64,000 nucleotides of DNA from a virus: IMG/VR virus record IMGVR_UViG_3300025834_000005, one strand, 5' to 3'. Each line of letters begins with the position of its first letter. Position 1 is the stretch's first letter. The position numbers were made by a program, and so were the translations under genes. Below, one piece after another: positions 2,208 through 32,728 of this stretch. A model generated the notes under the pieces. The model saw only the letters and a program-made list of their open reading frames with translations, ran no database searches and had not been told where the DNA came from.

Positions 2208-2237
2208 TTGTAACAAAAACAATTTTTGTACGTATAA
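2208..2237 (+). promoter_or_regulatory. ECF-type promoter copy TTGTAAC-N16-CGTATAA
   Basis: -35 at 2208-2214, -10 at 2231-2237; 14 nt upstream of ATG 2251. Confidence 0.6.
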
Positions 2238-2250
2238 ACAAGAAAAAGAT

Positions 2251-2709
2251 ATGGTAAAAAGAATATTAATGTTAACCTTATTTTTTATGACGATTCTACC
2301 TTTCAGTGGATTTGTCGTAGCAAATAAATCATCGGCGGATGAAAAGAATACTCTAACTCTGGAGAACGTCTACAACGAATTGTGCAGGCTGGGCGTAAGA
2401 GATAAGAATATCGTAATGGCGCAAGTTAGACTTGAAACAGGTCATCTAAATAAAATACAGCATAAAAACAACCTATTTGGCTTCAAGAAGCCTAACGGTA
2501 AATATAACACATATGACACATGGCAAACGAGTGTGGCTGATTTTAAAAGATGGCAAGATAAGTATTTCGTTAATGGCACATATTTAGAATTTATAAAAAA
2601 AAGAGGCTATGCTGCTAACATGCAGAATTATATTATGAATCTAAAAAAATTAATGTCTAAGTATAATAAAGTAAACGCAAGTTATGAACAAACTGATACA
2701 ATTGATTAA
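2251..2709 (+). CDS. secreted or membrane-anchored peptidoglycan hydrolase, glucosaminidase (FlgJ/LytD-like) domain
   Basis: N-terminal hydrophobic segment ILMLTLFFMTILPFSGFVVA, then MAQVRLETGHLN...NNLFGFKK (glucosaminidase AQ..E.G / NNLFG.K pattern). Start set at ATG 2251 because a promoter copy lies inside the longer track ORF. Confidence 0.6.
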   Translation: MVKRILMLTLFFMTILPFSGFVVANKSSADEKNTLTLENVYNELCRLGVRDKNIVMAQVRLETGHLNKIQHKNNLFGFKKPNGKYNTYDTWQTSVADFKRWQDKYFVNGTYLEFIKKRGYAANMQNYIMNLKKLMSKYNKVNASYEQTDTID

Positions 2710-3193
2710 CGAAATGATTGATGTTTTTCACGGAAGTACTAACAAATTTGATGTCTTCGATACAAGTAAAATAGGCACAGGCGACGGCAAAAGTATTGGT
2801 GGCTGGGGTTTAAATTTTTCAGACACAAGGGAAGTTGCTCAACAGTATTTTCTAAAAAGCGGATTTGTTGGTAGCTATAAAATTCCCAATGGAGATTATT
2901 TTAGCTTAGATGATAGGTTTGACCCAAGTGTGGGCGAGCTTATAAAAAGGGCACTCGATAAAATCGGAACTATAAAAGATGATGATATCGAAGAATTTCA
3001 AAACGATTTTATCGATAATGCCGATGAAGTTACCAATAAACAAGTGTATGAGTGGTTGTCATATGTTGTAGGATCTGAAAAGAATGCTTCTCTGCTTTTA
3101 GATCGGATAGGTTTTGTCGGCAATAAGTTCAGCGACAGGTGGAACAGAGAAGCAACAAATTATGTTATTTTCGATTCTAAAAATATTAGATAA
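2684..3193 (+). CDS. hypothetical protein, possible ADP-ribosyltransferase (H-Y-E/PARP-like) fold
   Basis: VFHGSTNKFDVFD...GGWGLNFSDTREVAQQY resembles the PARP-type HGS ... GxGxYFxxxxxxxxxY layout, read by eye only. Confidence 0.4.
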   Translation: MNKLIQLINEMIDVFHGSTNKFDVFDTSKIGTGDGKSIGGWGLNFSDTREVAQQYFLKSGFVGSYKIPNGDYFSLDDRFDPSVGELIKRALDKIGTIKDDDIEEFQNDFIDNADEVTNKQVYEWLSYVVGSEKNASLLLDRIGFVGNKFSDRWNREATNYVIFDSKNIR

Positions 3194-3194
3194 A

Positions 3195-3440
3195 ATGAAA
3201 GATACGCACTCCAAAATTATTCAGATAGTGTCTGAATTCTTAGATCAAAATCCAAATCAACGATTTGGTGAAGCACTTTTTAATTTAAACATCACACAGT
3301 TTAAATACGACCTGAAAGATATCGTAAAGCCGACAGACGTAAGTTATCAAATGCGAGACATTTACAACGATAACGATACATGCATGCTTAACAGAGTAAT
3401 AGAGTCAGGCAAGATTTTTAATTTAAAATCGGCAGAATAA
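3195..3440 (+). CDS. hypothetical protein
   Basis: In-frame ATG 3195 directly after the previous stop; the longer track ORF would overlap the upstream gene. Confidence 0.5.
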   Translation: MKDTHSKIIQIVSEFLDQNPNQRFGEALFNLNITQFKYDLKDIVKPTDVSYQMRDIYNDNDTCMLNRVIESGKIFNLKSAE

Positions 3441-3441
3441 A

Positions 3442-4115: not shown

Positions 4116-4976
4116 ATGATTTGTGTATACCATAAAAAAGATAATGATGGTTTCTGTAGTGCCGCAATTATACAGAGAAAATATCCAGATGCTGAATTTA
4201 TTGGCTATGATCATGGCGATGATCATATCAAATTTCTTGACTTTATCGACGAAGAAATCATAGTTGTTGATATTAGTTTCCCTATGAATATCATGTATAA
4301 CATTGCCAGTCGTAATAAGCTAACATGGATAGATCATCACGCATCGAGCATTGATAGTTATAATGTTTTTGATCATTCTACTGATAATAATATTAATGCT
4401 ATTCTTGAGGTGGGTAGAGCCGCTTGCGAATTAACATGGGAATATATTTTTCCTAATGAATTCATGCCTATAGGTATTGAATGCTTGGGAAAATATGATA
4501 CTTGGCGTGGATATGGCTCTGATGAATGGAATCATTACATTCTACCATTTGAATATGGAATGAGATCAATTTGTTCAAGCTTTGAGACATTTCCAAAGTT
4601 TGTCATAGATTACAATGAAGGCGAAGCTATTGATAGCATAATTAATAGTGGTAGAATCATAATTGGCTACCAAAATGTGGTTGACTCAAAACTATGTGTT
4701 TCAAATTCATTTGTTCGTCGTTTTAAAGGTTATAGAGCACTTTGTTTGAATGTTCCTTACATTGACTCGAATACAATGCAAAGTGTTTTCAACGCATCTG
4801 AACACGATTTAATGCTATCATTTACTTTTAAAGGCACACATTGGAGTTGCAGCCTTAGAAGTCAAGGTGATTTAGATGTCAGTGCTATTGCCAAATCAAT
4901 GGGCGGTGGTGGGCACAAAAACGCATCGGGCATGGAATTAACAACAGCCCAATTAGTAGAATTATTTAAATTGTGA
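4116..4976 (+). CDS. DHH/DHHA1 family phosphoesterase (NrnA/RecJ-like)
   Basis: Motifs HKKDNDG (DxD), VVDISF, WIDHHASS (DHH) and GGGGHKNASG (DHHA1 GGGH). Confidence 0.75.
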   Translation: MICVYHKKDNDGFCSAAIIQRKYPDAEFIGYDHGDDHIKFLDFIDEEIIVVDISFPMNIMYNIASRNKLTWIDHHASSIDSYNVFDHSTDNNINAILEVGRAACELTWEYIFPNEFMPIGIECLGKYDTWRGYGSDEWNHYILPFEYGMRSICSSFETFPKFVIDYNEGEAIDSIINSGRIIIGYQNVVDSKLCVSNSFVRRFKGYRALCLNVPYIDSNTMQSVFNASEHDLMLSFTFKGTHWSCSLRSQGDLDVSAIAKSMGGGGHKNASGMELTTAQLVELFKL

Positions 4977-5659
4977 AAGGAATTTATAAAATAGTATGTA
5001 CTGCTAATGATGTAACTTATATTGGCAGTACATGTGTAGATTTTAAGAAGCGTTTTAAAAAGCATAAACAAAGATTGAGACATAATTATCATGAGAATAG
5101 TTACCTCCAAAATGCATGGAATAAATATGGAGAGGAAACATTTAATTTTATAGTCATAGAAGAATTATTAGACGATATTGAAATAAAGACCAGAGAAAAA
5201 TACTGAATTGATCTATATATCCCATTAGGTAGAGATAGCTGCTTTAATTTAACTGATAATGTTGGTGGTGGTAACACAATTAAAACTGCTGAGATAAAAG
5301 CAAAGCACTCAAATAATTTAAAAAAATCTTATACGCCAGAACTTAGAGAAAAAAGGCGTATAGACCTTACACAAAGAAGCGATCTCTTTAAGATAAATGG
5401 CGATAAAGCAAGATATACTAAAGAATGGAGAGTGGCGCATTCAGCGGCAATGTCTAAATTATCCGATAATAAAATATGGCTTGAAAAGACCAGAGCAAAT
5501 AATAAGTCAAAAGGAAAGCCAGTGAAGACAGATCGAAATGAAATCTTTGAATCCGTATCAGAAGCTGCACGTCAAACAGGAGCATTAAATCCAAATATTA
5601 GACTTTGTATTAGAGGTAAAATAAAATCATGTATGGGTAGAAAGTGGTTTTATTGTTAA
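4973..5659 (+). pseudogene. GIY-YIG homing endonuclease (Seg/I-TevI-like) interrupted by a single in-frame TGA at 5204-5206
   Basis: KGIYKIV..VTYIGST (GIY-YIG), then REKY-TGA-IDLY. The frame stays open to 5659, with NUMOD3-like KHSNNLKK/AHSAAMSK repeats and a C-terminal FESVSEAARQTG..GRKWFY DNA-binding motif. Confidence 0.7.
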
Positions 5660-5733
5660 TAAAAATGCATCTGGGTTCGAAGTCAAAAGCTTTGATGATA
5701 ATTTTGACTAACTAAATACACAGCTTTTAATTA

Positions 5734-5770
5734 AAAATTGCCAATCGGATATAATCTGATTGGCAATTTT
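5734..5770. terminator. bidirectional hairpin between convergent genes
   Basis: AAAATTGCCAATC..GATTGGCAATTTT inverted repeat flanked by A and T runs. Confidence 0.65.
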
Positions 5771-5771
5771 A

Positions 5772-6755
5772 TTATCCCCTAAAATAGCTATCCCCTGCAA
5801 TTTGTTTTGCCTTGTCTTCGCTGCTGGTCTTAATATATCTAAAAAAGCTTTTCTCCGTTGTGTGTCCCGTTAGTGCCATAATCTCATATGTTCCCATCCT
5901 TGCGGTCTGGTACATGTTCGTGGCTGCACTACGTCGAGCTGTATGACTTGAAATAAGTTCCCATGCCTGCTTAGTCTCATAAATCAATTTACCGCCTTTC
6001 GTATAATTAAATTTCACATCCTCGTTAAATCCAATTAGTTTACAAATCTTTTTTATGCTTCTATTAAAGTATTGGATTGAAACTCCCGAATACAAATTTC
6101 CATTATATTTATTAAGAATTTCACGCACATAATCATGGATCGGAATAGTAATCCTTGTTTTTGTTTTCTTGACTATTTTTATGATAAAATCCTTTGTGAA
6201 ATTGTCCGTAGTCAAGGTGGAATAATCAGAAAAGCGTAATGCTGTCAAACATCCAACCACAAACAAATCTCTTATTTTCTCCTGCTTTTTAGTCAATCCC
6301 ATATAGTAATAAATTCTCGTGATTTTATTCATGCTCAGAAAAATCGAGAAAGTGTTTTCAAGCTTAATGCTAACGTCATCATAAGATGGATCAACTGCAT
6401 AGCCGTATTTTGCCGCTTTAGCCGCCATCGATTTAACAAGCGACAGCAAATTTGAGATGTAGTTTTGACGAAGATCATTCCCCTCAAGGTAAGTCACAAA
6501 ATCTTCAAGAAACTCCTCTCCAACAGAGTTCGTATAGATGTTGGCGTTGTATTGTTTCGAAAATGCGTTGAGATGTAGGATAAGGGTATTGTAGTTCTTC
6601 ACATACATTTCACTCATTCTATTTGATTTCCGCAGTGCAGTCACTGCAACAAAATCCGCAAAAAGTACGCCAGTTTTGGGTTCATTTTGTATTAAACGGT
6701 TAATGTAGTCCCGTTTGCCCGATAGGTCTTTTTCCACTTTTAAAGCTACGCTCAT
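5772..6755 (-). CDS. int: tyrosine recombinase / phage integrase
   Basis: LTALRFSD (Arg), HTARRSAATNMY (HxxR), LTGHTTEKSFFRYI (His..Tyr); N-terminal SAM-like region typical of Bacteroidetes-type integrases. Confidence 0.85.
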   Translation of the reverse strand: MSVALKVEKDLSGKRDYINRLIQNEPKTGVLFADFVAVTALRKSNRMSEMYVKNYNTLILHLNAFSKQYNANIYTNSVGEEFLEDFVTYLEGNDLRQNYISNLLSLVKSMAAKAAKYGYAVDPSYDDVSIKLENTFSIFLSMNKITRIYYYMGLTKKQEKIRDLFVVGCLTALRFSDYSTLTTDNFTKDFIIKIVKKTKTRITIPIHDYVREILNKYNGNLYSGVSIQYFNRSIKKICKLIGFNEDVKFNYTKGGKLIYETKQAWELISSHTARRSAATNMYQTARMGTYEIMALTGHTTEKSFFRYIKTSSEDKAKQIAGDSYFRG

Positions 6756-6883
6756 TTCGTAATTTCATTTATAATAATAAAGCCATAATAAGTGTAGAGC
6801 GGCTTACGAAAACCGTTAGTAATGTATCTAAAGCACTTATGGCTTCATTATATATTAATATATAACTCCGTAATTTCTCGCTG

Positions 6884-6891
6884 CAAAGTTA
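6884..6891 (-). promoter_or_regulatory. TAnnTTTG (Bacteroidetes -7-like) motif upstream of the integrase
   Basis: Minus strand reads TAACTTTG, about 128 nt upstream of the int start. Confidence 0.25.
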
Positions 6892-7063
6892 CGGATTTAA
6901 TTTGAAATGATAATAAAAACATATTTTTTTTTCAAACGCACCTCGTTGTTCTCCAATATAAGCTATTAGCATTGGGTTAACTCAACATTTATCAAGAATT
7001 CGTGATAGATCCTGACCCGTCACAAATTAATGTAACAAAGTTCATGTAGTCTCTAAATGTGAA

Positions 7064-8779
7064 CTAAAGTGACTTTGTATATGCCACCCAAGAAAGCACA
7101 TCATAAGCAAGTGAATAAAGCCCCAATAAATCGGGATGATCCGCATCTGCTGCATTTACCCGAACATTATTTCCCGTCATTAGATCAATCGTTGGATATG
7201 ATGTACTGCCGCCGACTGGCAAAGTAAAAAACGATGAAAGTAAAGAAACTCTATCGGTTACTTCAACGTTGTAAACTGCAAGCAAAGCCGCAATAAGAGC
7301 ATGATAATACGCTATTCTTGCATTGCCGGCCTGTAATTTATAGCCAACCAAATTGTCATAATCAAATAGTGTTCCTAACGCTCTCTGTGGCAAAATAGCA
7401 ATGTAAGAGGTTGGTAAATCAGCCTTAGCCTTAGCGACTAATTGCTGAATATCTGCCAGTACTTTAGTGACATTATCGGCAACACTCGTTTGTCCGAAAG
7501 CATTCAAATCATTTCCGCTTACCTCAATTACAAAGTTTGTCGGAGTATTCACATCATAGGCTGCAACGTCAGTAACTTTTGTCCCCACTGTCGGACTTTG
7601 CAGCGTTAATCTTACGCCTGAATCATCAAGCGTACGATAACGTGATATATACTTTGTAATTGAAAAGGCGTAAGTACCCGTTGACCTTGCTACGGCAACA
7701 TCAAAGAAAGGGTTTAATGGATTGACTTCGATTAAATCCTTCATTGCGGCCATGACAGCTACATTCTCACCTATCGAATATGAAGAACCTAAAACATAGC
7801 CCATGTTATTGTATTTCAAGGCATTCCAAAGTTCTTGCGTTAAGTCTGGAAGATAATAGCCATGAGGTGTTGACCGGATTAATTCAAGTTGTGAAACCGA
7901 TCCGGTATAGGTTGTATAAGCAGTTCCTGTGTATGAATCATAGCCATTTGCTTCACTCGTAGTATTCCACACTATTTTTTTACCTAATCCCAAAGAATCC
8001 CATGCCTGTGCACCTTTAGTAAACCATCCTGTCACATAAGATGTTGATGTAGGACGTATATTAGTGCAATGTCTTAAATATGATGCAGCCGTATAACCGC
8101 CACGTCCTTCACAACCGGCATTAAATGTTTTCGTTTGCCCCCTCCATGTTGCTTTTCTGGTAGCAGGTAGAACAGTACCGAGTATATTGTAACCTATCTT
8201 AGGGTCATTGACGCTGTAAGCGGTCATATCCAAATTGATCATCTCGATCATCTTTCCAATCAGAGCAGGGTAATGATAACCCTTTCCCCATGCCGTAGGG
8301 TCAATATTGAACCAATAACCAAAGTCCTGATAGCTCTGACCACTCCAACTATCCCCCATTGCAAGCACCGATAGATATTTATTACGCATATTGGCGGTTG
8401 TGGACTTTACAAGTTTGAAAGTTACATTTTTAGCGATATAACCAGGTGCTGATAATTCAACTGTAATGTTTTCAGATACAACTTTTTGAACATCAGTAAC
8501 CCTTGTATTCGATTCAAGCAAAAAAGTGTCATTTTTATTAATCATCAATTTAATGAGTGAATAAATAAATGATTCCCTGTATAACCTTTGAACAAAGCCA
8601 GAATTATTAAAGTCTGTCCAATTACTAAATTTGTTATCTAAAGCAAAAATTATAGTAGGGTTAAGCGTCATAGGTATTTCAGAATCCCCATCAATGACTG
8701 TTTCATAATGATTTAAATCACTATTCAATGAATTTACAAACTGATCACCTGTCATTCCTATTGTTACATTATTTCTCAT
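7064..8779 (-). CDS. tail fibre/tailspike-like protein with SGNH/GDSL esterase domain
   Basis: Block I VLAMGDSWSG, block III EVSGNDLNAF, block V ADADHPD (DxxH); sits in an operon with other fibre-like ORFs. Confidence 0.55.
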   Translation of the reverse strand: MRNNVTIGMTGDQFVNSLNSDLNHYETVIDGDSEIPMTLNPTIIFALDNKFSNWTDFNNSGFVQRLYRESFIYSLIKLMINKNDTFLLESNTRVTDVQKVVSENITVELSAPGYIAKNVTFKLVKSTTANMRNKYLSVLAMGDSWSGQSYQDFGYWFNIDPTAWGKGYHYPALIGKMIEMINLDMTAYSVNDPKIGYNILGTVLPATRKATWRGQTKTFNAGCEGRGGYTAASYLRHCTNIRPTSTSYVTGWFTKGAQAWDSLGLGKKIVWNTTSEANGYDSYTGTAYTTYTGSVSQLELIRSTPHGYYLPDLTQELWNALKYNNMGYVLGSSYSIGENVAVMAAMKDLIEVNPLNPFFDVAVARSTGTYAFSITKYISRYRTLDDSGVRLTLQSPTVGTKVTDVAAYDVNTPTNFVIEVSGNDLNAFGQTSVADNVTKVLADIQQLVAKAKADLPTSYIAILPQRALGTLFDYDNLVGYKLQAGNARIAYYHALIAALLAVYNVEVTDRVSLLSSFFTLPVGGSTSYPTIDLMTGNNVRVNAADADHPDLLGLYSLAYDVLSWVAYTKSL

Positions 8780-9918
8780 AGTCCATTGATTGATTTAAGA
8801 TAGTTATAAATTAATTGGTGATTTCCATCAGTATCCTTTATTTTTCTTATAATGATTCCTTTAACTTTTATATTACTAAACCTATCATCACCCAGGTAGC
8901 GTGAACCTAACCTGAATCCCGTCATATTAGAACCACCATATATTGCCGTTTCTTTAATATTATTATTGATAATAGAAAATCCATCCCATCCATTCAGGCA
9001 CAATCTCAAAATGCTCCATGTATTTAATCCAAATTGCGTACTAACTAAATGCTGAGCGTTTGTGTAAAAACAAGTTTGAGGCGCTGTATCTCTTAGTTCA
9101 AATGTTCCTTGTCCATGTGGATTTTGATATACATCAAATATTACATCTAATGATGACCATGTGATTACTTTTCCGACAAAATATATCATTTCTGCTGGTT
9201 GTGTTATTCCTAATACCCCAAACAGAGAATCATTTAATCCGTCAAATAAAACCCCATCTGAGTCTAATACTGGCTTTAACGAATCTGCGCCTGTCTGTAA
9301 TAAGTGATTATTATTACCTGATTTATCTGGCCACGATGAAATTGATGTGCCGCTTAAATCTTTATAGCTATACCATCCAACCGTATTGCCATCTGATAAA
9401 ATTGCAGGAGCGTCAATAGGAAATATGCTTTGGCCAATTCTATTTCCTTTTACATGACCATTTGCATTCAAAGAGTTATTCCAAAAAATAGATAGTTGAA
9501 ACCATTTAAAAAGGTCATTTAACTGAGGTTGTGTAAATGTTTCTCCCGACTTGATGATAGCAATCATTCTTATCTGATACGGAGTTGTATCGTCATACTT
9601 AACGGGCGTTCGTTGCAAGTCATATCCAATTAATTCGGCTGTTGTAACTGTCCGATTTGTGGCACTCGTATTAAACCAAATAAAATCAGTATCAGCGGCA
9701 ATGTAGGGTGCAGTATTGGGACATTGAAAAGTTTCTAATCCTGCACTTCCCGAAACGGTGAGCCAATCTGATCCCACCTTATTTGGCATCTTTCCCCCCG
9801 AAATAGCAGAGTAGTCCCCTAAGAACAGAAACTTATCTTTCAGCCATTGCGGAAGTTTCAACAATGCCCCTTGTTGAAATATCTGTCTTATACCTATTCC
9901 TGTTTTTATTCTTGGCAT
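8776..9918 (-). CDS. virion/tail-fibre-associated protein, possible LamG/concanavalin-like domain
   Basis: VLFDGLNDSLFG resembles the LamG FDGxxD pattern; 4-nt overlap with the downstream gene. Confidence 0.4.
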   Translation of the reverse strand: MPRIKTGIGIRQIFQQGALLKLPQWLKDKFLFLGDYSAISGGKMPNKVGSDWLTVSGSAGLETFQCPNTAPYIAADTDFIWFNTSATNRTVTTAELIGYDLQRTPVKYDDTTPYQIRMIAIIKSGETFTQPQLNDLFKWFQLSIFWNNSLNANGHVKGNRIGQSIFPIDAPAILSDGNTVGWYSYKDLSGTSISSWPDKSGNNNHLLQTGADSLKPVLDSDGVLFDGLNDSLFGVLGITQPAEMIYFVGKVITWSSLDVIFDVYQNPHGQGTFELRDTAPQTCFYTNAQHLVSTQFGLNTWSILRLCLNGWDGFSIINNNIKETAIYGGSNMTGFRLGSRYLGDDRFSNIKVKGIIIRKIKDTDGNHQLIYNYLKSINGL

Positions 9919-9988
9919 GTCACGAGTTTTTTTTTACCGTCCGAGTTTTCATGAAAATAAACAAACGGTGAATTATGTAATATTTTCA

Positions 9989-10429
9989 TTATATTGGTTT
10001 TAACCAAGCTGTAATCGAGTCAGCTGCGCCTGTAAGCCGAATACTTGTAATTTTATTTGCGAATGGTTGCCATTCGGTATTTGTTAAAACAAGAGGAACG
10101 GTCTTAAGAACCTCTTCTCCGCCAACTGCGCCAGCGACAATAGGCGTTAAAGCGACATTCTTTTTCAATGCTGCAATGATCACGCCGTCTGTTCGACAAG
10201 TAAATGAGCCAAAACAAAATCCATTAGGCGCAAATGCTTCGGCTATTCCGACAATAATTTTATTTCCGTAATAGCCCTGACTCATTTTTGCATATATATC
10301 GGAAGCATTATTCAAGTCCAAAAGAATTGCGACGCCACTATTAATCAGGATTAAACCTGTTGTATCATCCACATCTACAGATTTTCCAGAAGCTACATCG
10401 TTCCAAGATTGAGTTAATTGTATCAGCAT
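9989..10429 (-). CDS. hypothetical protein (structural context)
   Basis: ORF track; preceded by a GTATTTAT motif copy. Confidence 0.5.
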   Translation of the reverse strand: MLIQLTQSWNDVASGKSVDVDDTTGLILINSGVAILLDLNNASDIYAKMSQGYYGNKIIVGIAEAFAPNGFCFGSFTCRTDGVIIAALKKNVALTPIVAGAVGGEEVLKTVPLVLTNTEWQPFANKITSIRLTGAADSITAWLKPI

Positions 10430-10457
10430 ATCATTTTAAATTAATTACGTATTAAAA

Positions 10458-10465
10458 ATAAATAC
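10458..10465 (-). promoter_or_regulatory. GTATTTAT motif copy (candidate late promoter/initiation element)
   Basis: Minus strand AATATAGTATTTATTTTTAA, 28 nt upstream of ATG 10429. Confidence 0.4.
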
Positions 10466-10574
10466 TATATTAATCAGAAAAAAATATTATTTTACACATT
10501 AAATAGAAAATAATATTAACTCTAAAATGTTGATAGTTTACGGATTTGTTTTTTATCAAATTAGTCGCACACTT

Positions 10575-10604
10575 TTGTAACAAAATAGAAAGTAGTTCGT
10601 ATAA
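10575..10604 (+). promoter_or_regulatory. ECF-type promoter copy TTGTAAC-N16-CGTATAA
   Basis: -35 at 10575-10581, -10 at 10598-10604; upstream of 10627. Confidence 0.6.
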
Positions 10605-10626
10605 GTAAGAAAAATAATACGAGCGA

Positions 10627-11514
10627 ATGACAGATATTGAAATTATTAATAAGCTTCTTGCATCGAAAAAATCGTCAGATATTTTCACAGGTAGTGAATG
10701 GAAGAAAGCATACATCACGTATTCAAAAATGATTCATCCAGATTTTTGTAAGCATCCTAAGTCGGGTGAGGCAATGTCTATAATGAATATATATAAGGAT
10801 ATTATTGAGAATGGCGTTGAGTATGAAGATGAGGCTGGTAAGTTTCGTGTGTTTGATGATAAGATTGTTTACCCGATAAATGCGGCGAATAAATCTCTAA
10901 TCACCGCATCGTTCAGCAATTATCGCATCCTTAAACAAAAAACTGATGCAGCTTCAATTAATTTTCAGAAATACATGCCATTAAGCATGGACATAACAGC
11001 AGATAAATTAACGATAAATCTATTGAATCGTGCTGTTCCGCTTACCAATCAAAAATTACCACAGGAACATGTTAACTGGATATTCAGCCGTTTGTTCGAA
11101 CTTTCAATGTATATTCAAGATCAGGGTTACGCTCATTTAGGCTTTAATCCCACTTCGATCTTTGTAGTCCCTGTAAATCATGGTATAATTTGCACAACAT
11201 TTTATCACATGGCTAAACTGAATAATAAGGCAAAAACAGTTTCGGCAAAGTATAAGATGTGGTATCCAGCGTCATTATTCACGAACAAAATCGCAACTGG
11301 CGATATTGATCTCGAATTAGCTAAAAAGATTGCTTTATATTTGCTCGGCGATAAATCAGCTGCTGGCATGAAATTGAAAACGGACAAATCTGTTAATAAA
11401 GATATCCTGAATTTCTTCATCATTAAACATGATTGCTCCGTTGATCTTTATCAGAAATATAGAGACTTATTAAAGAAGCATTTTCCACCCAAATTTTTTG
11501 ACTTAGATTTATAA
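10627..11514 (+). CDS. J-domain (DnaJ-like) protein
   Basis: KKAYITYSKMIHPDFCKHPKSGEAMSIMNIYKDI: helix II, HPD tripeptide, helix III layout. Confidence 0.55.
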   Translation: MTDIEIINKLLASKKSSDIFTGSEWKKAYITYSKMIHPDFCKHPKSGEAMSIMNIYKDIIENGVEYEDEAGKFRVFDDKIVYPINAANKSLITASFSNYRILKQKTDAASINFQKYMPLSMDITADKLTINLLNRAVPLTNQKLPQEHVNWIFSRLFELSMYIQDQGYAHLGFNPTSIFVVPVNHGIICTTFYHMAKLNNKAKTVSAKYKMWYPASLFTNKIATGDIDLELAKKIALYLLGDKSAAGMKLKTDKSVNKDILNFFIIKHDCSVDLYQKYRDLLKKHFPPKFFDLDL

Positions 11515-11517
11515 GCT

Positions 11518-11784
11518 ATGATTGCAAGAATAAACGATAAAGTAAAAATAGTGAGCATTGGTGATTTATGTGAGGATGGCAGTTGCACACTAATTATTAA
11601 CAGAGGTAAGATCATCGTTAATAATATTACGGAAATATTTAACTCAGGTAGATTATATATGCTGATTGTTTGTAACTTCGAACTTGAATTAACAGAGTCA
11701 GAAGCGGATATGATTAATAAAACAGATGCTCACGATTCATTGGACGATATTTATCCTGATATTTATAAAAAGAATGAAAAATAA
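11518..11784 (+). CDS. hypothetical protein
   Basis: ORF track. Confidence 0.5.
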   Translation: MIARINDKVKIVSIGDLCEDGSCTLIINRGKIIVNNITEIFNSGRLYMLIVCNFELELTESEADMINKTDAHDSLDDIYPDIYKKNEK

Positions 11785-11794
11785 TCACTGAAAG

Positions 11795-11824
11795 TTGTAA
11801 CCTTTTACATTCTTTTACGTATAA
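11795..11824 (+). promoter_or_regulatory. ECF-type promoter copy TTGTAAC-N16-CGTATAA
   Basis: -35 at 11795-11801, -10 at 11818-11824. Confidence 0.6.
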
Positions 11825-11867
11825 CATAGAAACAACATTTTAATATTTACATTTAATAATTTTTATC

Positions 11868-12005
11868 ATGGGAAATCCAAATCATTCAACATTTAAGTCT
11901 TTCGAAGAGGAAGCCGATGCAGCAGAAGCTGTTCTCGTAGAAAAAACATTAGACGAAGCAGTAGCTGGCGAAGTTTCAGACGTAACTCCTGAACCAGTAG
12001 CATAA
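11868..12005 (+). CDS. small acidic protein (45 aa), hypothetical
   Basis: ATG 11868 to TAA 12003-12005; TAATG overlap with the vWA gene; below the ORF-track size cutoff. Confidence 0.4.
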   Translation: MGNPNHSTFKSFEEEADAAEAVLVEKTLDEAVAGEVSDVTPEPVA

Positions 12006-12928
12006 TGGGAGGCGGAAGTTGGTCAGATGATGCTTTCAGAAGCATTAGTTCATCGAAAAAGTATAAGTCAGCAACTGAGATTTTTTCAAGCAAAGAATCA
12101 GTTGATATGACTCCGAAGGTTCTCATTGACAAAAACAGAGAATCAAGGGATAGTGACGAGCATCCCGAATCTTTAGCGGTAATGGTCTTTCTTGACGTTA
12201 CTGGTAGCATGGGAATGGTTCCCGAAAATATCGTGAAAAACAATCTTGGTGGATTAATGAACACCATTATCGACAACGGTATTAAAGACCCACAAGTTCT
12301 ATTCGGAGCAATTGGCGATCATATCAGCGACAATTCACCGCTTCAATTAGGTCAATTTGAGTCCGATACAGTTTTAATTGATAGCTGGCTCACAAAAATG
12401 TACCTTGAAGGTAGAGGCGGAGGTGGTAATCATGAGAGTTACCTATTAGCTTGGCTTGCTGCTGGAAGGCACACATCAATCGATTGCTTTGAGAAAAGAA
12501 GCGTAAAAGGTTTCTTATTCACAATCGGTGACGAACGTAGTCACACTTCGATTGACACCGCTGGTTTGAAAAAGGTCATGGGTTATCCACAAGCTGACGA
12601 TGTTACAGACGAGCAGTTGCTTGCAGAAGCACAGCGTATGTATAACGTTTACCATATTCATGTGAATGAAACCAGTTACAAAGACGATACTCTCGTATTC
12701 AATTACTGGAAAAAGATGATCGGACAGAATTTTATCGTTCTTGAAGACTATACCACGATTTGCGAAACTATTGCAACCATCATTGCTATGCAGAATGGTA
12801 TTGACATGGAAAAAGTAACAAGTAAATTCGATGCAGCGACTTCAAAAAGTGTAACGAATGCTTTGATGGTATTGTCTAAATCAGGCGATTCTATTTCAAA
12901 GACCGATACAGGCGTTATTGAACTTTAA
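12005..12928 (+). CDS. von Willebrand factor A (vWA) domain protein
   Basis: MIDAS-like VFLDVTGSMG and later FTIGDERS. Confidence 0.6.
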   Translation: MGGGSWSDDAFRSISSSKKYKSATEIFSSKESVDMTPKVLIDKNRESRDSDEHPESLAVMVFLDVTGSMGMVPENIVKNNLGGLMNTIIDNGIKDPQVLFGAIGDHISDNSPLQLGQFESDTVLIDSWLTKMYLEGRGGGGNHESYLLAWLAAGRHTSIDCFEKRSVKGFLFTIGDERSHTSIDTAGLKKVMGYPQADDVTDEQLLAEAQRMYNVYHIHVNETSYKDDTLVFNYWKKMIGQNFIVLEDYTTICETIATIIAMQNGIDMEKVTSKFDAATSKSVTNALMVLSKSGDSISKTDTGVIEL

Positions 12929-12944
12929 TTAAAAGGTAATAAAT

Positions 12945-12980
12945 AAAAAGGCGATAATATTCATTTATTATCGCCTTTTT
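12945..12980 (+). terminator. rho-independent terminator
   Basis: AAAAAGGCGATAAT / ATTATCGCCTTTTT, 14-bp stem plus T run. Confidence 0.75.
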
Positions 12981-13009
12981 TGTAACCTTTTATATTTCTT
13001 TACGTATAA
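12980..13009 (+). promoter_or_regulatory. ECF-type promoter copy TTGTAAC-N16-CGTATAA
   Basis: -35 at 12980-12986, -10 at 13003-13009. Confidence 0.6.
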
Positions 13010-13026
13010 ATAAGAAAACATTTCAC

Positions 13027-13524
13027 ATGGATAATATCTTTTGGGTTGACACCGATGGCTGCACTGATTTTCACATTAGCTACAACATTAATTATGGTAA
13101 CGAAATTCGTCTCGATGACGATGACGATAATAATATTGAGGCATACGTTGATGAAATGCTTTGCTTCGATTCACTCATTCAATTTGATAAAGAACAGAAT
13201 GAGATAAATCAAATTGAACTCAACTATGTTAAAGATCATATAAACTATTCCATAGATAATATGAATCTTGATGAATTGTATTGGCAACATGTAGGCTATG
13301 TTGAGGTTGTGGAAACCAGCAATGTTAATACTGGATATCCGAGTTATAAATTCTATCTCGAAAAAGACAACCCCAAATCATTAAGGTATATGCGTCAGGA
13401 TGATGACGGCGAATATCACAACATGGTATGGCAAACAGTGGGTTGCTGTGAGGATGATTATTCAGGATTTCTACTATTTCCATTAAATGATGGAAGATAC
13501 TGGAAAATATCCTATTCTTGTTAA
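13027..13524 (+). CDS. hypothetical acidic protein
   Basis: ORF track. Confidence 0.5.
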   Translation: MDNIFWVDTDGCTDFHISYNINYGNEIRLDDDDDNNIEAYVDEMLCFDSLIQFDKEQNEINQIELNYVKDHINYSIDNMNLDELYWQHVGYVEVVETSNVNTGYPSYKFYLEKDNPKSLRYMRQDDDGEYHNMVWQTVGCCEDDYSGFLLFPLNDGRYWKISYSC

Positions 13525-13545
13525 TTAACTGTAAAATAATATAAT

Positions 13546-15471: not shown

Positions 15472-15502
15472 TTAGAACACCCTTTCTCCCTTTCATAGTA
15501 TG

Positions 15503-15533
15503 GCTGGATATCTAAAAAATATCCAGCTTTTTT
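15503..15533 (+). terminator. rho-independent terminator
   Basis: GCTGGATAT / ATATCCAGC stem, 7-nt loop, T7 run. Confidence 0.75.
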
Positions 15534-18159: not shown

Positions 18160-18163
18160 AAAT

Positions 18164-19754: not shown

Positions 19755-19784
19755 TTGTAACCTTATATAATTATTTACGTATAA
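19755..19784 (+). promoter_or_regulatory. ECF-type promoter copy TTGTAAC-N16-CGTATAA
   Basis: -35 at 19755-19761, -10 at 19778-19784. Confidence 0.6.
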
Positions 19785-23628: not shown

Positions 23629-23658
23629 TTGTAACAAATACATATTTTTCACGTATAA
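23629..23658 (+). promoter_or_regulatory. ECF-type promoter copy TTGTAAC-N16-CGTATAA
   Basis: -35 at 23629-23635, -10 at 23652-23658. Confidence 0.6.
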
Positions 23659-25007: not shown

Positions 25008-25037
25008 TTGTAACATTTGAAAAGTTCTTACGTATAA
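25008..25037 (+). promoter_or_regulatory. ECF-type promoter copy TTGTAAC-N16-CGTATAA
   Basis: -35 at 25008-25014, -10 at 25031-25037; heads the TROVE/RNA unit. Confidence 0.6.
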
Positions 25038-25067: not shown

Positions 25068-26501
25068 ATGAGTAAATTGAACCCTATTTTAAAAAGTGGC
25101 GTTTCTGATTTAAAATCAGATGAAAGACTTGCTGGTGGATTTGGAACCAGAGCAGCTAAACAAGACGAATTAGCTCTATTACGTAGAGTTGTTTTAGCGA
25201 ACCTATTATGGGAAAACATTGCGTATGCTAACGGTGAAGATGTTTCAACACAGATCAGCCAGTTGATTCCGCAATGTAATCCTCAAGATGTTGCTGATCT
25301 TGCTGTTGAGGCGAGACTTGAGCAGAAATTGCGTCATACTCCTTTGTTTATTTGTGTTGAAATGCTGAAACACGTTGGATATTCTGCGTTGGTTGCCGAT
25401 ATCTTACCAAAGATTATCACAAGAGCAGACATGATTACAGACTTTCTTGCTATCTACAAGAAACAGAATGGCGGTAAGCTAAAGCCTTTGGCTGCTGCTG
25501 CTAAGAAAGGTTTGGCGAAAGCATTCGATAACTTTAACGAATACCAATTCGCTAAATATGACAGGGATGCCGAGATCAAGTTAAGGGATGCTATGTTTTT
25601 AGCTCACCCAAAACCATCTTCACAGGAAAAGATTGAACTTTACAAGAAAGTTGCTGATCGTACTTTGAAAACTCCTGATACATGGGAAGTTGCTTTATCG
25701 ACAGGTAAAGATAAGAAAGCCACATGGGAGAGATTGATCGATGAAAAGAAAATCGGTGGTTTGGCAATGTTGCGCAATGTACGTAATATGGTTCAGTCGG
25801 GTGTTAACTCGAATAGCATTAGAAAGGGATTGAAAAATCTAAATAGTTCGATGTTATTGCCTTTCAATTTCTTAACAGCCTCAAGGTTTGCACCTGAGTA
25901 TTCGAGAGATATTGAGGATGCTATGGTTGAGTCTTATAAGAATCTTCCTAAATTATCTGGAAAGACATTATTCATTGTCGATATTTCAGGCTCAATGGGT
26001 GCTAAATTATCTGACAAGTCGGGAATGTCCAGAATGGATGCTGCTTGTGCAATGGCTATGCTTGCGATTAATCAATGTGAAAACTATGAAATCGTAGCAA
26101 CTGCTGGGAATGATGGTTCGCATAAAGGTGCTCATAAGCATATTCTAAATCCAAAAAAGGGATTCGATGTGTTCAAGCAAATTCAAAGTGCTGGAAGTGA
26201 AATCGGCTGTGGTGGTATTTTCACCAGACAGTGTATCGAATGGTGTAAAGCCAACGTATCTGATACATTCGACAGAATTATCATATTCTCTGACTCACAG
26301 GATTGCGATCTTATGAATGCGAGAATTCCAGCACCTTACGGCAAATATAACTATATTTGCGACGTATCGTCAAATGAGAGAGGCGTTAACTTTAGGAATG
26401 TATGGGATGCCGAAATTACAGGTATGTCTGAAAACTTCCTAACATATATCGCTGCAAACGAAGGTCTAACAAATAAATTTGACGACCAGAGTGAAAATTA
26501 A
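25068..26501 (+). CDS. rsr: Ro60-like TROVE domain + vWA domain protein (Rsr-like)
   Basis: LLRRVVLANLLWENIAYANGED...RLEQKLRHTPLFICVEM and GGLAMLRNVRNM fit the TROVE pattern (compare Ro60 ..LLRNLGKM). C-terminal MIDAS FIVDISGSMG ... IIIFSDSQD. Confidence 0.8.
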   Translation: MSKLNPILKSGVSDLKSDERLAGGFGTRAAKQDELALLRRVVLANLLWENIAYANGEDVSTQISQLIPQCNPQDVADLAVEARLEQKLRHTPLFICVEMLKHVGYSALVADILPKIITRADMITDFLAIYKKQNGGKLKPLAAAAKKGLAKAFDNFNEYQFAKYDRDAEIKLRDAMFLAHPKPSSQEKIELYKKVADRTLKTPDTWEVALSTGKDKKATWERLIDEKKIGGLAMLRNVRNMVQSGVNSNSIRKGLKNLNSSMLLPFNFLTASRFAPEYSRDIEDAMVESYKNLPKLSGKTLFIVDISGSMGAKLSDKSGMSRMDAACAMAMLAINQCENYEIVATAGNDGSHKGAHKHILNPKKGFDVFKQIQSAGSEIGCGGIFTRQCIEWCKANVSDTFDRIIIFSDSQDCDLMNARIPAPYGKYNYICDVSSNERGVNFRNVWDAEITGMSENFLTYIAANEGLTNKFDDQSEN

Positions 26502-26909: not shown

Positions 26910-27033
26910 AGGGCGTTAGCTCAGTTGGTAGAGCGCGAAATTCTCTTTTACACCTTTTCCCTTTATTGTGGCGTTCGTAAAAGTTACTTCATTCTTAATG
27001 ACGAGGTCGGTGGTTCGAGTCCATCATGCCCTA
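26910..27033 (+). tRNA. tRNA-Lys(CUU)-like gene with a 51-nt insertion between D arm and anticodon arm
   Basis: Acceptor AGGGCGT/ATGCCCT; U8; D arm GCTC-AGTTGGTA-GAGC; insertion 26936-26986; anticodon arm CTTCA-TTCTTAA-TGACG (one U-C mismatch); AGGTC; T arm GGTGG-TTCGAGT-CCATC. Confidence 0.6.
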
Positions 27034-27128: not shown

Positions 27129-27165
27129 AAAAGGTCAACATACTCAAAATATGTTGACCTTTTTT
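27129..27165 (+). terminator. rho-independent terminator closing the TROVE/RNA unit
   Basis: AAAAGGTCAACATA / TATGTTGACCTTTT 14-bp stem, 7-nt loop, T run. Confidence 0.8.
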
Positions 27166-27193
27166 GTAACCTTTTTTATCGAGTTACGTATAA
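27164..27193 (+). promoter_or_regulatory. ECF-type promoter copy TTGTAAC-N16-CGTATAA
   Basis: -35 at 27164-27170, -10 at 27187-27193. Confidence 0.6.
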
Positions 27194-29430: not shown

Positions 29431-29676
29431 TTACCAAGTCTTTTTATTAAAAAGATAAACAGGCATATACATCCATCCTGTAGGCCATTGACGATTATCC
29501 GTAACATTTGTATTTGGCGTAATCGGTGTAGATGCTATAATATTTCTGGGGTTCTTTGGATTAGAACGACCATTTCTCTCTTTAGTCTCAACCCCAACCG
29601 TTAATTTTATCATAAAGTATTTACATATAAATACGAAAATATGGATAATAGTTACTAATTTCTGTAACAAAAACAA
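29431..29676 (-). CDS. possible antisense-oriented small gene (hypothetical)
   Basis: Only long ORF in an otherwise 276-nt gap; its 5' end overlaps the promoter copy, so the true start may be internal. Confidence 0.3.
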   Translation of the reverse strand: MFLLQKLVTIIHIFVFICKYFMIKLTVGVETKERNGRSNPKNPRNIIASTPITPNTNVTDNRQWPTGWMYMPVYLFNKKTW

Positions 29677-29691
29677 TTTAATTACGTATAA
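29662..29691 (+). promoter_or_regulatory. ECF-type promoter copy (CTGTAAC-N16-CGTATAA)
   Basis: -35 at 29662-29668, -10 at 29685-29691. Confidence 0.55.
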
Positions 29692-30200: not shown

Positions 30201-30663
30201 AACAAATTTAGAATATAGAATGTATTTTCTTGTGTTAGGCTCACTACAAGGTATTAATAAAGGAATTCAGTGTGGGCATGCCGCATTAGAGTATGTGGAC
30301 GAATATGGCAGTAATGACGATTACCGAGACTTTTTCGAGAATGATAAAACATTCATTATGCTGAATGGCGGAACGTCTAATAATGGCTTCGATGAAGATG
30401 GTAAATTCTTAGGTTCTTTGAATATGATTGCTGATGAATTAAATTCAAATAATATCAACTTTGCCATGTTTTATGAGCCAGATATTAACAATGCCTTAAC
30501 AGCTGTATGTTTTCTTGCTGATGAAAGAGTTTATAATAAGTTTATTTATCCTGACTATGATTCAGATAATTTCACGTCCTATGAGCAATGGCTTTCAGAT
30601 ATTGGCGGAACTAAGAACTTCATCCTACGAGAAATTCTCGACGGAAAAAAATTAGCGTCATGA
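30193..30663 (+). CDS. peptidyl-tRNA hydrolase PTH2-like protein
   Basis: YRMYFLVLGSLQGINKGIQCGHAALEY parallels PTH2 ..VVRxDLxMGKGKxAAQCxHAA..; later FIMLNG and ALTAVCF segments fit the fold order. Confidence 0.45.
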   Translation: MNRTNLEYRMYFLVLGSLQGINKGIQCGHAALEYVDEYGSNDDYRDFFENDKTFIMLNGGTSNNGFDEDGKFLGSLNMIADELNSNNINFAMFYEPDINNALTAVCFLADERVYNKFIYPDYDSDNFTSYEQWLSDIGGTKNFILREILDGKKLAS

Positions 30664-31187
30664 CAACAGAGCCAACATTCATAATTATAGCGGCTGTTAG
30701 CCTTGACGGAAAAATTGGACATGATAATGATCTATTATGGCATATACCCGAAGACCTTAAGCATTTCAAAGAAAACACCATAAATCAGGTATTACTTATG
30801 GGCTTAAATACCTTTAAGTTTTTGCCAGAGGTTGCAAAAAAGAACCGTAAGTTTATCATTCTTAATGGTAGCGAAGAAGATTTAAAACATGAGTCTATCT
30901 TATTTCAATGTGCTTCAATAACTGAATTATTCGAAGAATTAAAATTTGATCAATATCAGGATATAAAAAGCATTTATGTTGCTGGTGGTGCAATGGTTTA
31001 CAATTCAATGATACCATTCTGCGATAAGGCTTTATTAACTCTTGTTGAAGAATGTTTCCCCGATGCTAATAAAGGCTTTCCATCGGAACTATTTCTAAAA
31101 ATGTTTGAATTAGATGATGATGATTTCGTATACAATAGAAGCAAATCAAATATAATATATTCATTTCGTCGATATACTCGCAAATGA
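30660..31187 (+). CDS. folA: dihydrofolate reductase
   Basis: IIAAVSLDGKIGHDNDLLWHIPEDLKHFKENTINQVLLMGLNTF and VAGGAMVY. Confidence 0.8.
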   Translation: MTTEPTFIIIAAVSLDGKIGHDNDLLWHIPEDLKHFKENTINQVLLMGLNTFKFLPEVAKKNRKFIILNGSEEDLKHESILFQCASITELFEELKFDQYQDIKSIYVAGGAMVYNSMIPFCDKALLTLVEECFPDANKGFPSELFLKMFELDDDDFVYNRSKSNIIYSFRRYTRK

Positions 31188-31220
31188 TGTAACAAAAAAA
31201 AATAACTTAGTATGAATAAT
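31187..31220 (+). promoter_or_regulatory. variant promoter copy (ATGTAAC-N16-GTATGAATAAT)
   Basis: Same -35 and spacing, diverged -10; upstream of the helicase gene. Confidence 0.35.
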
Positions 31221-31262
31221 GTGTATGAGTCAAACCATGCACATTATTTTTAATATATACAT

Positions 31263-32678
31263 ATGAACGACAAAGAACTAATATTACCAAATAATAAGTT
31301 GATCACATTTAATGATCAGCAATATGATGGCATTAATTTAATGCGTCAATGGCTTAAAACCGATAATAAGTTCTTCACTTTAGCTGGCTATGCTGGAACA
31401 GGTAAAACTACCATAGTAAAGAAAATACTTGATGAATCCAGCAGAAAAATAGCCGTATCAGCACCTACACATAAAGCTAAGAAAGTTGTTGCACGATCAA
31501 CATCACAAGAAGCTTTAACATTACAAGCTATATGTGGATTAAGACCAGATGTAGACCTTGATAATTTCAATCCAAATAGTCCCGAATTCGGAGTAATCGC
31601 AATACCTAAGATCAGCAATTTTGATATTTTAGCTATTGATGAAGCATCTATGATCAACGCTGATTTATTCGCTTTAATTAAAAGGTTATCCGAAAAAGCA
31701 GCTACTCAGATATTATTCATGGGTGACCCTGCACAGATACCGCCCATAAATGAGAAAGAAAGTGTTGTTTTCAACGATTCGTCAATCTTAATGCATTGGC
31801 TTACAAAGATAGAACGTCAAACTGACGGCAATGCATTGTGTGTTATTTACGATGCATTAAGAAACAACCTAAACAGATCGGACGGCGGATTCAACAGAAT
31901 CACAGATATTAACAGCGATGGTGAAGGCGTTATCTTTACAAAGAGTAAAAGATTTTTTAGAGATCGCTTACTAAAGGAATTTTCATCAGAAGAGTTTAAA
32001 AGAGATACTGATCACGTTAAATTAATAGCTTGGAAGAACGAGACTGTGATGTATTCTAATAAAATGATACGTGACAGTTTATTTGGTGCTAATAGCGATA
32101 TAGTTGAGATTAACGACCTTTTAATGGGCTATCGAAGTATTGGCGATAAAAGTCGGTTATATAATATTATTGAGAATTCGGCGGATTACAGAATTGTAAC
32201 CAAATCTGATCTGGAACAAAGCGAATTGGATATATTCGGCTATTATGTCAAGCTACGTGAAAATACAGGCTTTGGAAGTTACACATTCCGAGACGTTTTC
32301 ATTGTAGATACCAATGACGTGAGTAACATGCATTTATATGCTGAATATCATGACTTTTTCAGAGATATGGCAAGTAAAAATAAAAAACTATGGACTAAAT
32401 ATTACGATTTTAGACGTAATAATATGATTCTACGCAACATCACTGAATTCAGAAATGGTACTTTACGTGGACGTAAGGATATTATTGTAAAAGATTTGGA
32501 TTATGGATTTGCTATCACAGGTCATAAATCACAAGGTAGTACCTATAAGAATGTTTTCATTCTTGAGGATGATATTGACGAAAACTGGTCTATTAAAGAA
32601 CGAAATCAGATAAAATACGTTGCTATGACACGACCATCGAAGTCTGCAACCATTTTAACATCAAATGCGATGGATTAA
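31263..32678 (+). CDS. SF1 RecD/Dda-like DNA helicase
   Basis: Walker A AGYAGTGKTT, Walker B ILAIDEASMI, GDPAQIPPI, GHKSQGSTYKNVFI. Confidence 0.8.
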   Translation: MNDKELILPNNKLITFNDQQYDGINLMRQWLKTDNKFFTLAGYAGTGKTTIVKKILDESSRKIAVSAPTHKAKKVVARSTSQEALTLQAICGLRPDVDLDNFNPNSPEFGVIAIPKISNFDILAIDEASMINADLFALIKRLSEKAATQILFMGDPAQIPPINEKESVVFNDSSILMHWLTKIERQTDGNALCVIYDALRNNLNRSDGGFNRITDINSDGEGVIFTKSKRFFRDRLLKEFSSEEFKRDTDHVKLIAWKNETVMYSNKMIRDSLFGANSDIVEINDLLMGYRSIGDKSRLYNIIENSADYRIVTKSDLEQSELDIFGYYVKLRENTGFGSYTFRDVFIVDTNDVSNMHLYAEYHDFFRDMASKNKKLWTKYYDFRRNNMILRNITEFRNGTLRGRKDIIVKDLDYGFAITGHKSQGSTYKNVFILEDDIDENWSIKERNQIKYVAMTRPSKSATILTSNAMD

Positions 32679-32698
32679 TATGAAATACTTCAATATTT

Positions 32699-32728
32699 TT
32701 GTAACCTTTTGTATTAAATTACGTATAA
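32699..32728 (+). promoter_or_regulatory. ECF-type promoter copy TTGTAAC-N16-CGTATAA
   Basis: -35 at 32699-32705, -10 at 32722-32728. Confidence 0.6.

Follow-up and report, generated by a model that had tools for sequence, protein, structure and literature searches.

Along the + strand of a 64-kb stretch of viral DNA (64,000 nucleotides of the IMG/VR record IMGVR_UViG_3300025834_000005, hereafter the window), genes are repeatedly preceded by near-identical copies of a bipartite motif, TTGTAAC-N16-CGTATAA, and the question raised by this locus is which factor reads them. The source is an uncultured T4-like jumbo phage of Bacteroidota with a genome of about 328 kb, known from metagenomes alone. 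The evidence presented below strongly supports the identification of 13 sites in the window, and of at least five upstream of it, as putative promoters of the extracytoplasmic function (ECF; group 4 sigma-70) type. Their reader is probably, though not provably, a sigma factor of the phage's own, encoded on the - strand of the window.

The sequence inspected comprises the window and 10 kb on each side, i.e., 84 of the ~328 kb. T4-like functions encoded there include rIIB, a large rIIA-like protein, a gp25 baseplate protein, an SbcCD-like nuclease, and a primase-like protein. The G+C content of the window is ~33%, and a Bacteroidota host is indicated by TAnnTTTG boxes of the Bacteroidota type together with a SprB-repeat protein encoded by the phage. 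Searches of GenBank phages with the DNA or with the sigma protein recovered no close relative, and the best match of the SbcCD-like protein, in a 735-kb metagenomic phage, is 31% identical. The exact motif pattern, in turn, recurs in more than 117 IMG/VR stretches, many of which come from relatives of this phage that share its gene order at 50-92% protein identity.

An ECF-type promoter class on the + strand

An exact search recovers 12 copies of TTGTAAC-N16-CGTATAA in the window, all on the + strand, and none in 100 dinucleotide-preserving shuffles of it. A mismatch-tolerant search adds the copy at 29662 alone (CTGTAAC, one mismatch), the remaining matches with 2-3 mismatches occurring at chance frequency. 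The sites listed in an earlier description made from the letters alone (the sequence-only reading) are thus borne out in both position and strand. On a 44-nt weight matrix derived from them, the 13 sites score 35-47 bits, as against at most 9.7 bits for the rest of the window and 7-18 bits for base-shuffled sequences. Two additional variants that had been proposed score at chance on this matrix and were rejected: the one at 69 (8.7 bits) falls within the 3' end of the preceding gene, stopping 3 nt short of the following ATG, and the one at 31187 (-1.9 bits) has no CGT.

Five further copies are found on the + strand within the 10 kb upstream of the window, two of them preceding the rIIA-like and rIIB genes, and the block of structural genes in the 10 kb past the window has none. 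Across the 18 unique copies the -10 box CGTATAA is invariant and the spacer measures exactly 16 nt (none of 14, 15, or 17-19 nt), and the -35 box TGTAAC is equally invariant (13/13 in the window and 5/5 upstream). The first motif position is T, C, or A across relatives, leaving TGTAAC-N16-CGTATA as the invariant core. The extended consensus runs from a T-rich stretch through TTGTAAC, CTTTT or AAAA, and a variable stretch to TTA-CGTATAA-nnn-AGAAA. Its nnnAGAAA tail, which had been described as usual, is in register in 10 of the 13 copies, reads ATAAA in two, and is shifted by one base in the last. The bases after the AAC of the -35 box also vary (CTTTT or CTTAT in 7/13, AAAA or AAAT in 5/13, ATTTG in 1/13), which suggests two promoter subclasses. 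All 13 sites are intergenic and upstream of a start codon, as had been claimed; the distance from the motif end to the next ATG is 10-43 nt, rather than the 14-45 nt originally given. In relatives whose proteins are 50-90% identical, orthologous intergenic sites keep the boxes and their spacing while the spacer sequence and flanks have diverged, which is how a functional bipartite site would be expected to evolve.

The motif has the AAC in the -35 box, the CGT in the -10 box, and a spacer length (16 nt, within the range of 16-17 nt) that characterize ECF promoters. Its reading as ECF-type is accordingly well founded in the ECF architecture described for Bacillus subtilis (PMC5758882) and in the SM6 class of Flavobacterium psychrophilum (PMC9723704). 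In B. subtilis, the sigma-W promoter has the -35 box tGAAACnTTTt with a T-tract and the -10 box CGTA, and sigma-W promoters, like those of sigma-X and sigma-V, combine a -35 box ending in AAC, a following T-tract, a 16-17-nt spacer, and a CGTA -10 box (PMC5758882). The phage motif differs from these in having TGTAAC instead of TGAAAC and an extended -10 element, (TTA)CGTATAA, and the comparison is with another phylum. Moreover, ~5/13 phage copies have an A-tract in the place of the T-tract, a change that weakens B. subtilis ECF promoters (PMC5758882).

The closer parallel is in F. psychrophilum, where a 5'-end map defines SM6 as a sigma-ECF promoter class with a CGT box (Guerin et al. 2021, PMC9723704), the promoter sequences from -50 to +10 being given in Table S2 of that work. 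The SM6 promoter of its Band-7 gene is TTTGTAAC-N16-CGTATAA, with the mapped start 6 nt past the last A, and that of yceA is likewise AAC-N16-CGT, so that two of the two SM6 examples compared have this form (PMC9723704). Judged by sequence, the phage motif is a member of the SM6 class. The phage copies share with the SM6 promoters and with the proximal rpoD promoter of F. psychrophilum the GTAAC and CGTATAA boxes, and the starts of the latter two lie 6-7 nt past the -10 box. The sixth to seventh base past the phage CGTATAA falls inside the conserved AGAAA. The expectation that transcription starts 5-10 nt past the -10 box therefore holds for the same sequence in F. psychrophilum, a member of the host phylum, where it is a cellular promoter (PMC9723704). 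The SM6 examples also have the 16-nt spacer of the phage copies, and the organisms probably belong to the phylum of the phage's host. However, SM6 promoters are cellular, number a few per genome, and serve membrane, secretion, and sigma genes, whereas those of the phage occur at a density of about one per 2.6 kb; the F. psychrophilum rpoD version, for its part, has a 17-nt spacer.

This last arrangement is widespread. A scan of one genome per species for TGTAACCTTTT-N12-CGTATAA, i.e., with the 17-nt spacer, returned at least 120 loci, nearly all from Bacteroidota. Among the matches listed, the downstream open reading frame (ORF) is a 287-288-aa protein in at least 89 of the 109 loci with a callable ORF. 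A representative of this protein has sigma-70 regions 1.2, 2, 3, and 4, which identifies it as the primary sigma factor RpoD. Across these loci (L191-L310), at least 89 species of Flavobacteriia and relatives have the element before rpoD, at a distance of 6-47 nt. The N17 promoter is the main rpoD start of F. psychrophilum, with 101 reads as against 3 for the distal sigma-A start, across all conditions; it is listed there without a sigma class (PMC9723704). Most transcription of rpoD in these bacteria thus seems to originate at an ECF-type promoter. The boxes are also found directly upstream of host genes for SigW-like ECF sigmas, with an N17 spacer in one locus (L204) and an N16 spacer in another (L194). 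Their presence before both rpoD and SigW-like genes suggests that the TGTAAC...CGTATAA specificity belongs to a host ECF sigma, and such a factor seems to be active in normal growth.

Within the 84 kb, the ECF-type motif appears to be one of three putative promoter classes that are sorted by gene function. Counted within 60 nt upstream of genes, it precedes 13 window genes on the + strand, where TAnnTTTG has a single match, a chance overlap with the motif copy at 32699. The proposal that one promoter class serves the + strand block is thus supported within this stretch by 18 ECF-type copies and by the lack of any credible sigma-A box. That the motif heads every + strand cassette was too strong a claim, as ~20 other + strand gaps of at least 35 nt are devoid of a copy. 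The - strand has no ECF-type copy and instead presents two other classes. The first consists of TAnnTTTG boxes (5 observed vs ~0.6 expected) preceding the genes 37377-38126, 39907-40338, and 50532-52070, the SbcCD-like gene, and the primase-sigma operon. TAnnTTTG is not enriched overall, its enrichment being just upstream of - strand genes, and a scan with the Escherichia coli-type sigma-70 consensus showed no enrichment, as expected for Bacteroidota. These sigma-A-type -7 boxes, often followed by C, stand upstream of positions 38126, 40338, 48142, 49749, and 52070, where they precede genes for replication and recombination as well as the primase-sigma operon. The second comprises 6-7 GTATTTATT boxes before structural and neighbouring genes. 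The corresponding late-type box, (TA)TAGTATTTAT(T), is found on the - strand at 10457, 39445, 50426, 53265, 57044, 62272, and 63229, lies 15-25 nt before the start codons of these genes, and is strongly strand-biased. It recurs in the loci L118 and L121 and in nearly all of L123-L190, is kept across 69 loci with a gene of the sigma family, and resembles a T4-late-type, -10-only promoter. Both - strand classes are kept at orthologous positions in the relative L118.

The phage sigma factor and competing readers

The ORF at 48204-48755 (- strand) encodes an ECF-like sigma of 183 aa that contains only sigma-2 and sigma-4 domains, in agreement with its earlier description as a sigma-70 family protein with regions 2 and 4 alone. 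It matches the Pfam models Sigma70_r2 (E 1e-8) and Sigma70_ECF (residues 8-174, 23.6 bits vs a cut-off of 21.1) and the NCBIfam model TIGR02937 (48.7 vs a cut-off of 42.9), and its best match among solved structures, a weak one, is E. coli RpoE. Such a two-domain sigma is suited to a bipartite promoter. Starting from the single sequence, searches gather five proteins, and with a family profile 150, nearly all of them metagenomic. Among protein clusters formed at 50% identity, 31 match below E 1e-30 and 125 below 1e-10. A search of IMG/VR with the window sigma as a single protein gave no match, and members were found there with alignments, 68 IMG/VR loci encoding one. The family is present on phage contigs of up to ~360 kb, several of its members being on contigs of 100-340 kb. 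The family resembles other ECF sigmas in the sigma-2 region, and its sigma-4 consensus is T-S-x-T-x-S-N-K-V-N-Y-I-K-x-K-L-K, not the canonical G-T-V-K/R-x-R-x-x-R-A-R type. A nearest relationship of the window sigma to the host SigW-like ECF group was considered and dropped, as hhalign gives 19% identity and NCBIfam no preference for SigW, which is the generic ECF level. Two further contigs deserve mention. One of 362,763 bp, labelled as part of a Candidatus Paceibacterota metagenome-assembled genome (L260 / L205), is equal in length to the IMG/VR contig 3300029288_000055, on which a family-type sigma is encoded, and probably represents a jumbo phage placed in a bacterial assembly by binning. 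Another (L308) encodes a canonical-type sigma, has three motif copies, and also resembles phage DNA.

The sigma gene is flanked by the primase-like and SbcCD-like genes rather than by an anti-sigma gene, and the sigma protein is present unchanged on contigs of ~328 kb. The primase-like gene (48706-49749, - strand) is the first of the operon that contains it, and upstream of this operon, after a hairpin, is a putative sigma-A-type promoter of the Bacteroidota kind, TTTG-N19-TATTTTTG (49754-49784, - strand), whose -7 box is kept in L118. As this box before 49749 is only 4 nt from the first ATG, the true start may be the gene caller's choice at ~49710.

A sigma-A-type promoter on the sigma operon fits a cascade. 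The host sigma-A holoenzyme would transcribe the primase-sigma operon from its TAnnTTTG promoter, and the ECF-like sigma would then join the host core RNA polymerase and turn on the TGTAAC-N16-CGTATAA class. Transcripts of this class would start ~6-7 nt past CGTATAA, inside the conserved AGAAA, and its sites would head the short, often hairpin-insulated transcription units that form the non-structural block. The separate TAGTATTTAT class on the - strand would drive the structural genes. We infer both the pairing of the window sigma with the motif and this temporal order, and we place the probability that the protein encoded at 48204-48755 reads the motif at about 0.5.

Other phages provide a context for this pairing. 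Exact copies of the motif occur together with a family-type sigma on ten IMG/VR contigs. A de novo search for bipartite motifs around the sigma genes of the 69 loci was uninformative. No ECF-type copies lie near the sigma there, as is the case in the window. Motif copies near ECF sigma genes are found on four contigs that have few or no other detectable genes in common with the window. In L034, 13 copies are packed into 5 kb, with one sigma gene just before the array and a second inside a motif-driven operon. In L041, at least nine copies directly follow a sigma gene, in L071 the motif lies 18 nt upstream of one, and in L046 a copy is ~1.2 kb downstream of one. Phages thus do encode sigmas of their own for this promoter class; that the divergent sigma of the window is such a factor does not follow. 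The array of L034 (positions 8534-13580 of this 39.5-kb unrelated phage contig) has an identical TCTTAAACAAAC after 11 of its 13 motif copies, a conserved leader comparable to the AGAAA after the window copies.

Several observations weigh against assigning the motif to the window sigma. The region of this protein corresponding to the -35-recognition helix reads S-N-K-V-N-Y-I-K-T-K, as opposed to G-T-V-K-x-x-I-x-R-A-K/R, while host SigW-like sigmas and the phage sigmas beside other motif arrays all keep the canonical helix. A changed helix reading an unchanged TGTAAC box is not the simplest expectation. The array-adjacent phage sigmas are themselves of the canonical type, closer to host ECFs than to the window sigma family. 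The window sigma gene has no motif upstream and a sigma-A-type box in its place, which implies that the sigma is not autoregulated. The late TAGTATTTAT box tracks the window sigma family just as consistently as the motif does, and co-occurrence therefore cannot tell which of the two classes this sigma reads. Further, as the motif boxes are those of a host promoter class, no phage sigma is strictly needed, and a second phage sigma may exist beyond the 84 kb.

The strongest competitor is the host ECF sigma that reads the SM6-type promoters of Flavobacteriia. Were it to read the phage sites, the + strand block would be expressed early and with no phage protein, leaving the window sigma for another class. 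The use of the same boxes by the host makes this option much more concrete: boxes and 16-nt spacer equal those of a mapped host SM6 promoter, and the 17-nt-spacer form before rpoD and the boxes upstream of SigW-like genes speak for a resident factor. The read counts at the main rpoD start suggest that it is at work in ordinary growth. The typical early functions of the + strand block (rIIA/rIIB and nucleotide metabolism) and the divergent -35 helix of the window sigma point the same way. On the other hand, the phage spacer is strictly 16 nt and that of the widespread host rpoD promoter is 17 nt. An own ECF-like sigma is found in nearly every checkable phage contig with a multi-copy array, several of these sigmas being adjacent to the array, and would be needless if a host factor sufficed. 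ECF sigmas are also usually scarce or sequestered by anti-sigma factors. On balance we regard transcription by the host factor as a serious but less probable alternative to a phage sigma.

A distinctly less likely arrangement is that a different phage sigma of the canonical ECF type, encoded elsewhere in the 328 kb, reads the motif and that the window sigma reads the -10-only TAGTATTTAT late class. The canonical type of the sigmas beside motif arrays in other phages is consistent with it, as is the way in which the late box, with its strong strand bias, follows the window sigma family across 69 loci, and the inspected 84 kb leaves room for such a gene. Gp36 of phiEco32 offers a precedent, as a distant sigma homologue that uses a -10-centred element (PMC12276001). 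Yet no second sigma is encoded in the window plus 20 kb, nor in the 20-kb surroundings of family-type sigma genes at 69 loci, and a sigma with a sigma-4 domain is expected to use a -35 box, which the late class does not show. T4 late promoters are read by gp55 with gp33. T4-like jumbo phages generally have a minimal sigma together with a gp33 orthologue, i.e., a separate gp55-type system for late promoters (PMC7824862).

That the sites are no promoters of a sigma-directed polymerase at all is very improbable: their position at cassette borders, in some cases directly past hairpins, might suit a regulator operator, a recombination or cassette-exchange site, or a phage RNA polymerase promoter, but they comprise two conserved boxes separated by free sequence of fixed length, have a single orientation to the downstream genes at a fixed short distance from start codons, and match a mapped promoter in a host. 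Promoters of T7-like or multisubunit phage RNA polymerases were rejected on the bipartite form with a free spacer, the promoters of single-subunit RNA polymerases being contiguous blocks, and recombination sites on the fixed orientation and start-codon distance. A MotA-type appropriation of sigma-A was likewise rejected, as the -10 region is without the -7 box TAnnTTTG.

Transcription units of the + strand block

The sites described here are all on the + strand. The copy at 2208-2237, of the AACAAAA subclass, lies 13 nt before the ATG at 2251 and heads a glucosaminidase-like gene. That at 10575-10604 is 22 nt before the ATG at 10627 (295 aa), and the orthologous site in L110 and L052 is CTGTAAC-N16-CGTATAA. 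The copy at 11795-11824 belongs to the AACCTTTT subclass, precedes the ATG at 11868 by 43 nt, and is kept at the orthologous sites of L110, L052, L068, L042, and L096, where the flanks have diverged. Next, the copy at 12980-13009 abuts a terminator-like hairpin (12945-12980) and heads a predicted operon with a PurA-like gene (13546-14709). The one at 15533-15562 directly follows a similar hairpin (15502-15528) and lies 19 nt before the ATG at 15582, and the one at 16779-16808 is 25 nt before the RtcB gene (16834-18159). At 18176-18205 the -35 box lies within the loop of a hairpin (18163-18198), with the ATG at 18223 17 nt on, and the same hairpin-enclosed -35 box is seen in L028. The copy at 19755-19784 is 10 nt before the ATG at 19795, upstream of an ATP-grasp gene (20064-20813), and that at 23629-23658, conserved in L028, is 18 nt before the ATG at 23677. 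The copy at 25008-25037 precedes the Ro60/TROVE gene (25068-26501) by 30 nt. That at 27164-27193 directly follows a terminator-like hairpin (27129-27163) closing the cassette of Ro60 and a tRNA-like RNA and lies 26 nt before the ATG at 27220. The CTGTAAC copy at 29662-29691 is 15 nt before the ATG at 29707, in a predicted operon that reaches the DHFR gene (30660-31187). The last, at 32699-32728, is 24 nt before the ATG at 32753 and conserved in L107, whose contig also encodes a sigma 70% identical to that of the window (L118).

Four hairpins (12945, 15502, 18163, and 27129) have folding z-scores of -4.9 to -7.5 against shuffles. The view that several promoters sit immediately past a terminator thus stands in so far as all four structures are real, though at 18163 the hairpin does not precede the promoter but encloses its -35 box.

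Besides the glucosaminidase-like, PurA-like, RtcB, ATP-grasp, Ro60/TROVE, and DHFR-operon units and many small ORFs headed by motif copies, the + strand block includes a DHH phosphoesterase and a superfamily 1 (SF1) helicase. The label of accessory block, given to it by the sequence-only reading, is misleading for a region that encodes rIIA/rIIB-like proteins, DHFR, a PurA-like protein, RtcB, Ro60, a helicase, and a DHH phosphoesterase; it is a block of non-structural genes.

Some of these genes are of interest in themselves. The Ro60/TROVE gene is followed by a non-coding gap of 496 nt, in which 26910-27033 (+ strand) matches the Rfam tRNA model with 42.6 bits. Its acceptor, D, and T arms are intact, with a 64-nt insertion in the place of the anticodon arm, and ARAGORN calls no tRNA there. 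As this tRNA-like RNA adjoins the Ro60 gene and RtcB is encoded in the same block, it has the appearance of a Y RNA of the YrlA type that bears a tRNA-like module; a true Y RNA would make this a phage-borne Ro60/Y RNA/RtcB set for RNA repair. The adenylosuccinate-synthetase-like protein encoded at 13546-14709 (Pfam E 3e-41, with ~318 of the 416 profile positions covered) may act in the 2-aminoadenine DNA pathway as a PurZ-type enzyme. Finally, a short - strand island (5772-10429) interrupts the + strand block. It includes a tyrosine-recombinase/integrase-like gene (5772-6755, - strand), an ORF with a GIY-YIG domain precedes it (4973-5206, + strand), and the 4973-6755 region with this island may be a mobile insertion.

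Relationship to known phage programmes

Phage sigmas that retarget the host polymerase are well known. By its sequence, the placement of a phage sigma under a host-type promoter accords with cascades of the kind built on phiEco32 gp36, SPO1 gp28, and T4 gp55. In its proposed role, the window sigma recalls the gp36/gp79 system of phiEco32, in which a small, distant phage sigma homologue binds the host core and drives post-early genes. However, the middle and late promoters of phiEco32 share a single AATGTA element, centred at -11.5 and unlike any host class, and the partner gp79 is required (PMC12276001). The T4 programme likewise has three promoter classes sorted by gene function, and rIIB, gp25, and the SbcCD-like nuclease are present in the window phage. 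At T4 middle promoters, in contrast, host sigma-70 is remodelled by AsiA and MotA, with no separate two-domain sigma. The group 2 (T4-like) jumbo phages rely, as proposed here, on the host core RNA polymerase and phage-encoded sigma factors, though the review of these phages describes minimal and RpoD-like phage sigmas and no ECF-like family (PMC7824862). In the literature searched we found neither this sigma family and its likely promoter nor a phage promoter that copies a host ECF class.

Such copying is a tentative possibility that could take two forms: a phage sigma with a remodelled helix and no anti-sigma would mimic the host specificity, or the whole non-structural programme would run on a host alternative sigma. 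If the phage sigma mimics the host factor, phage middle genes and host SM6-type genes would be switched on together. If the host sigma does the work, the main non-structural programme of the phage would depend on an alternative host sigma. Either route, if true, would be an unusual wiring of early or middle transcription for a lytic phage. A sufficient phage sigma would, with its promoter, be usable as an orthogonal expression switch for Bacteroidota, and the candidate sigma-promoter pair is testable in vitro. More generally, these findings provide a three-class promoter map (sigma-A, ECF, and late type) for a large, uncultured clade of T4-like Bacteroidota jumbo phages and link a putative phage promoter class to a host ECF class whose 17-nt-spacer boxes front rpoD across many Flavobacteriia.

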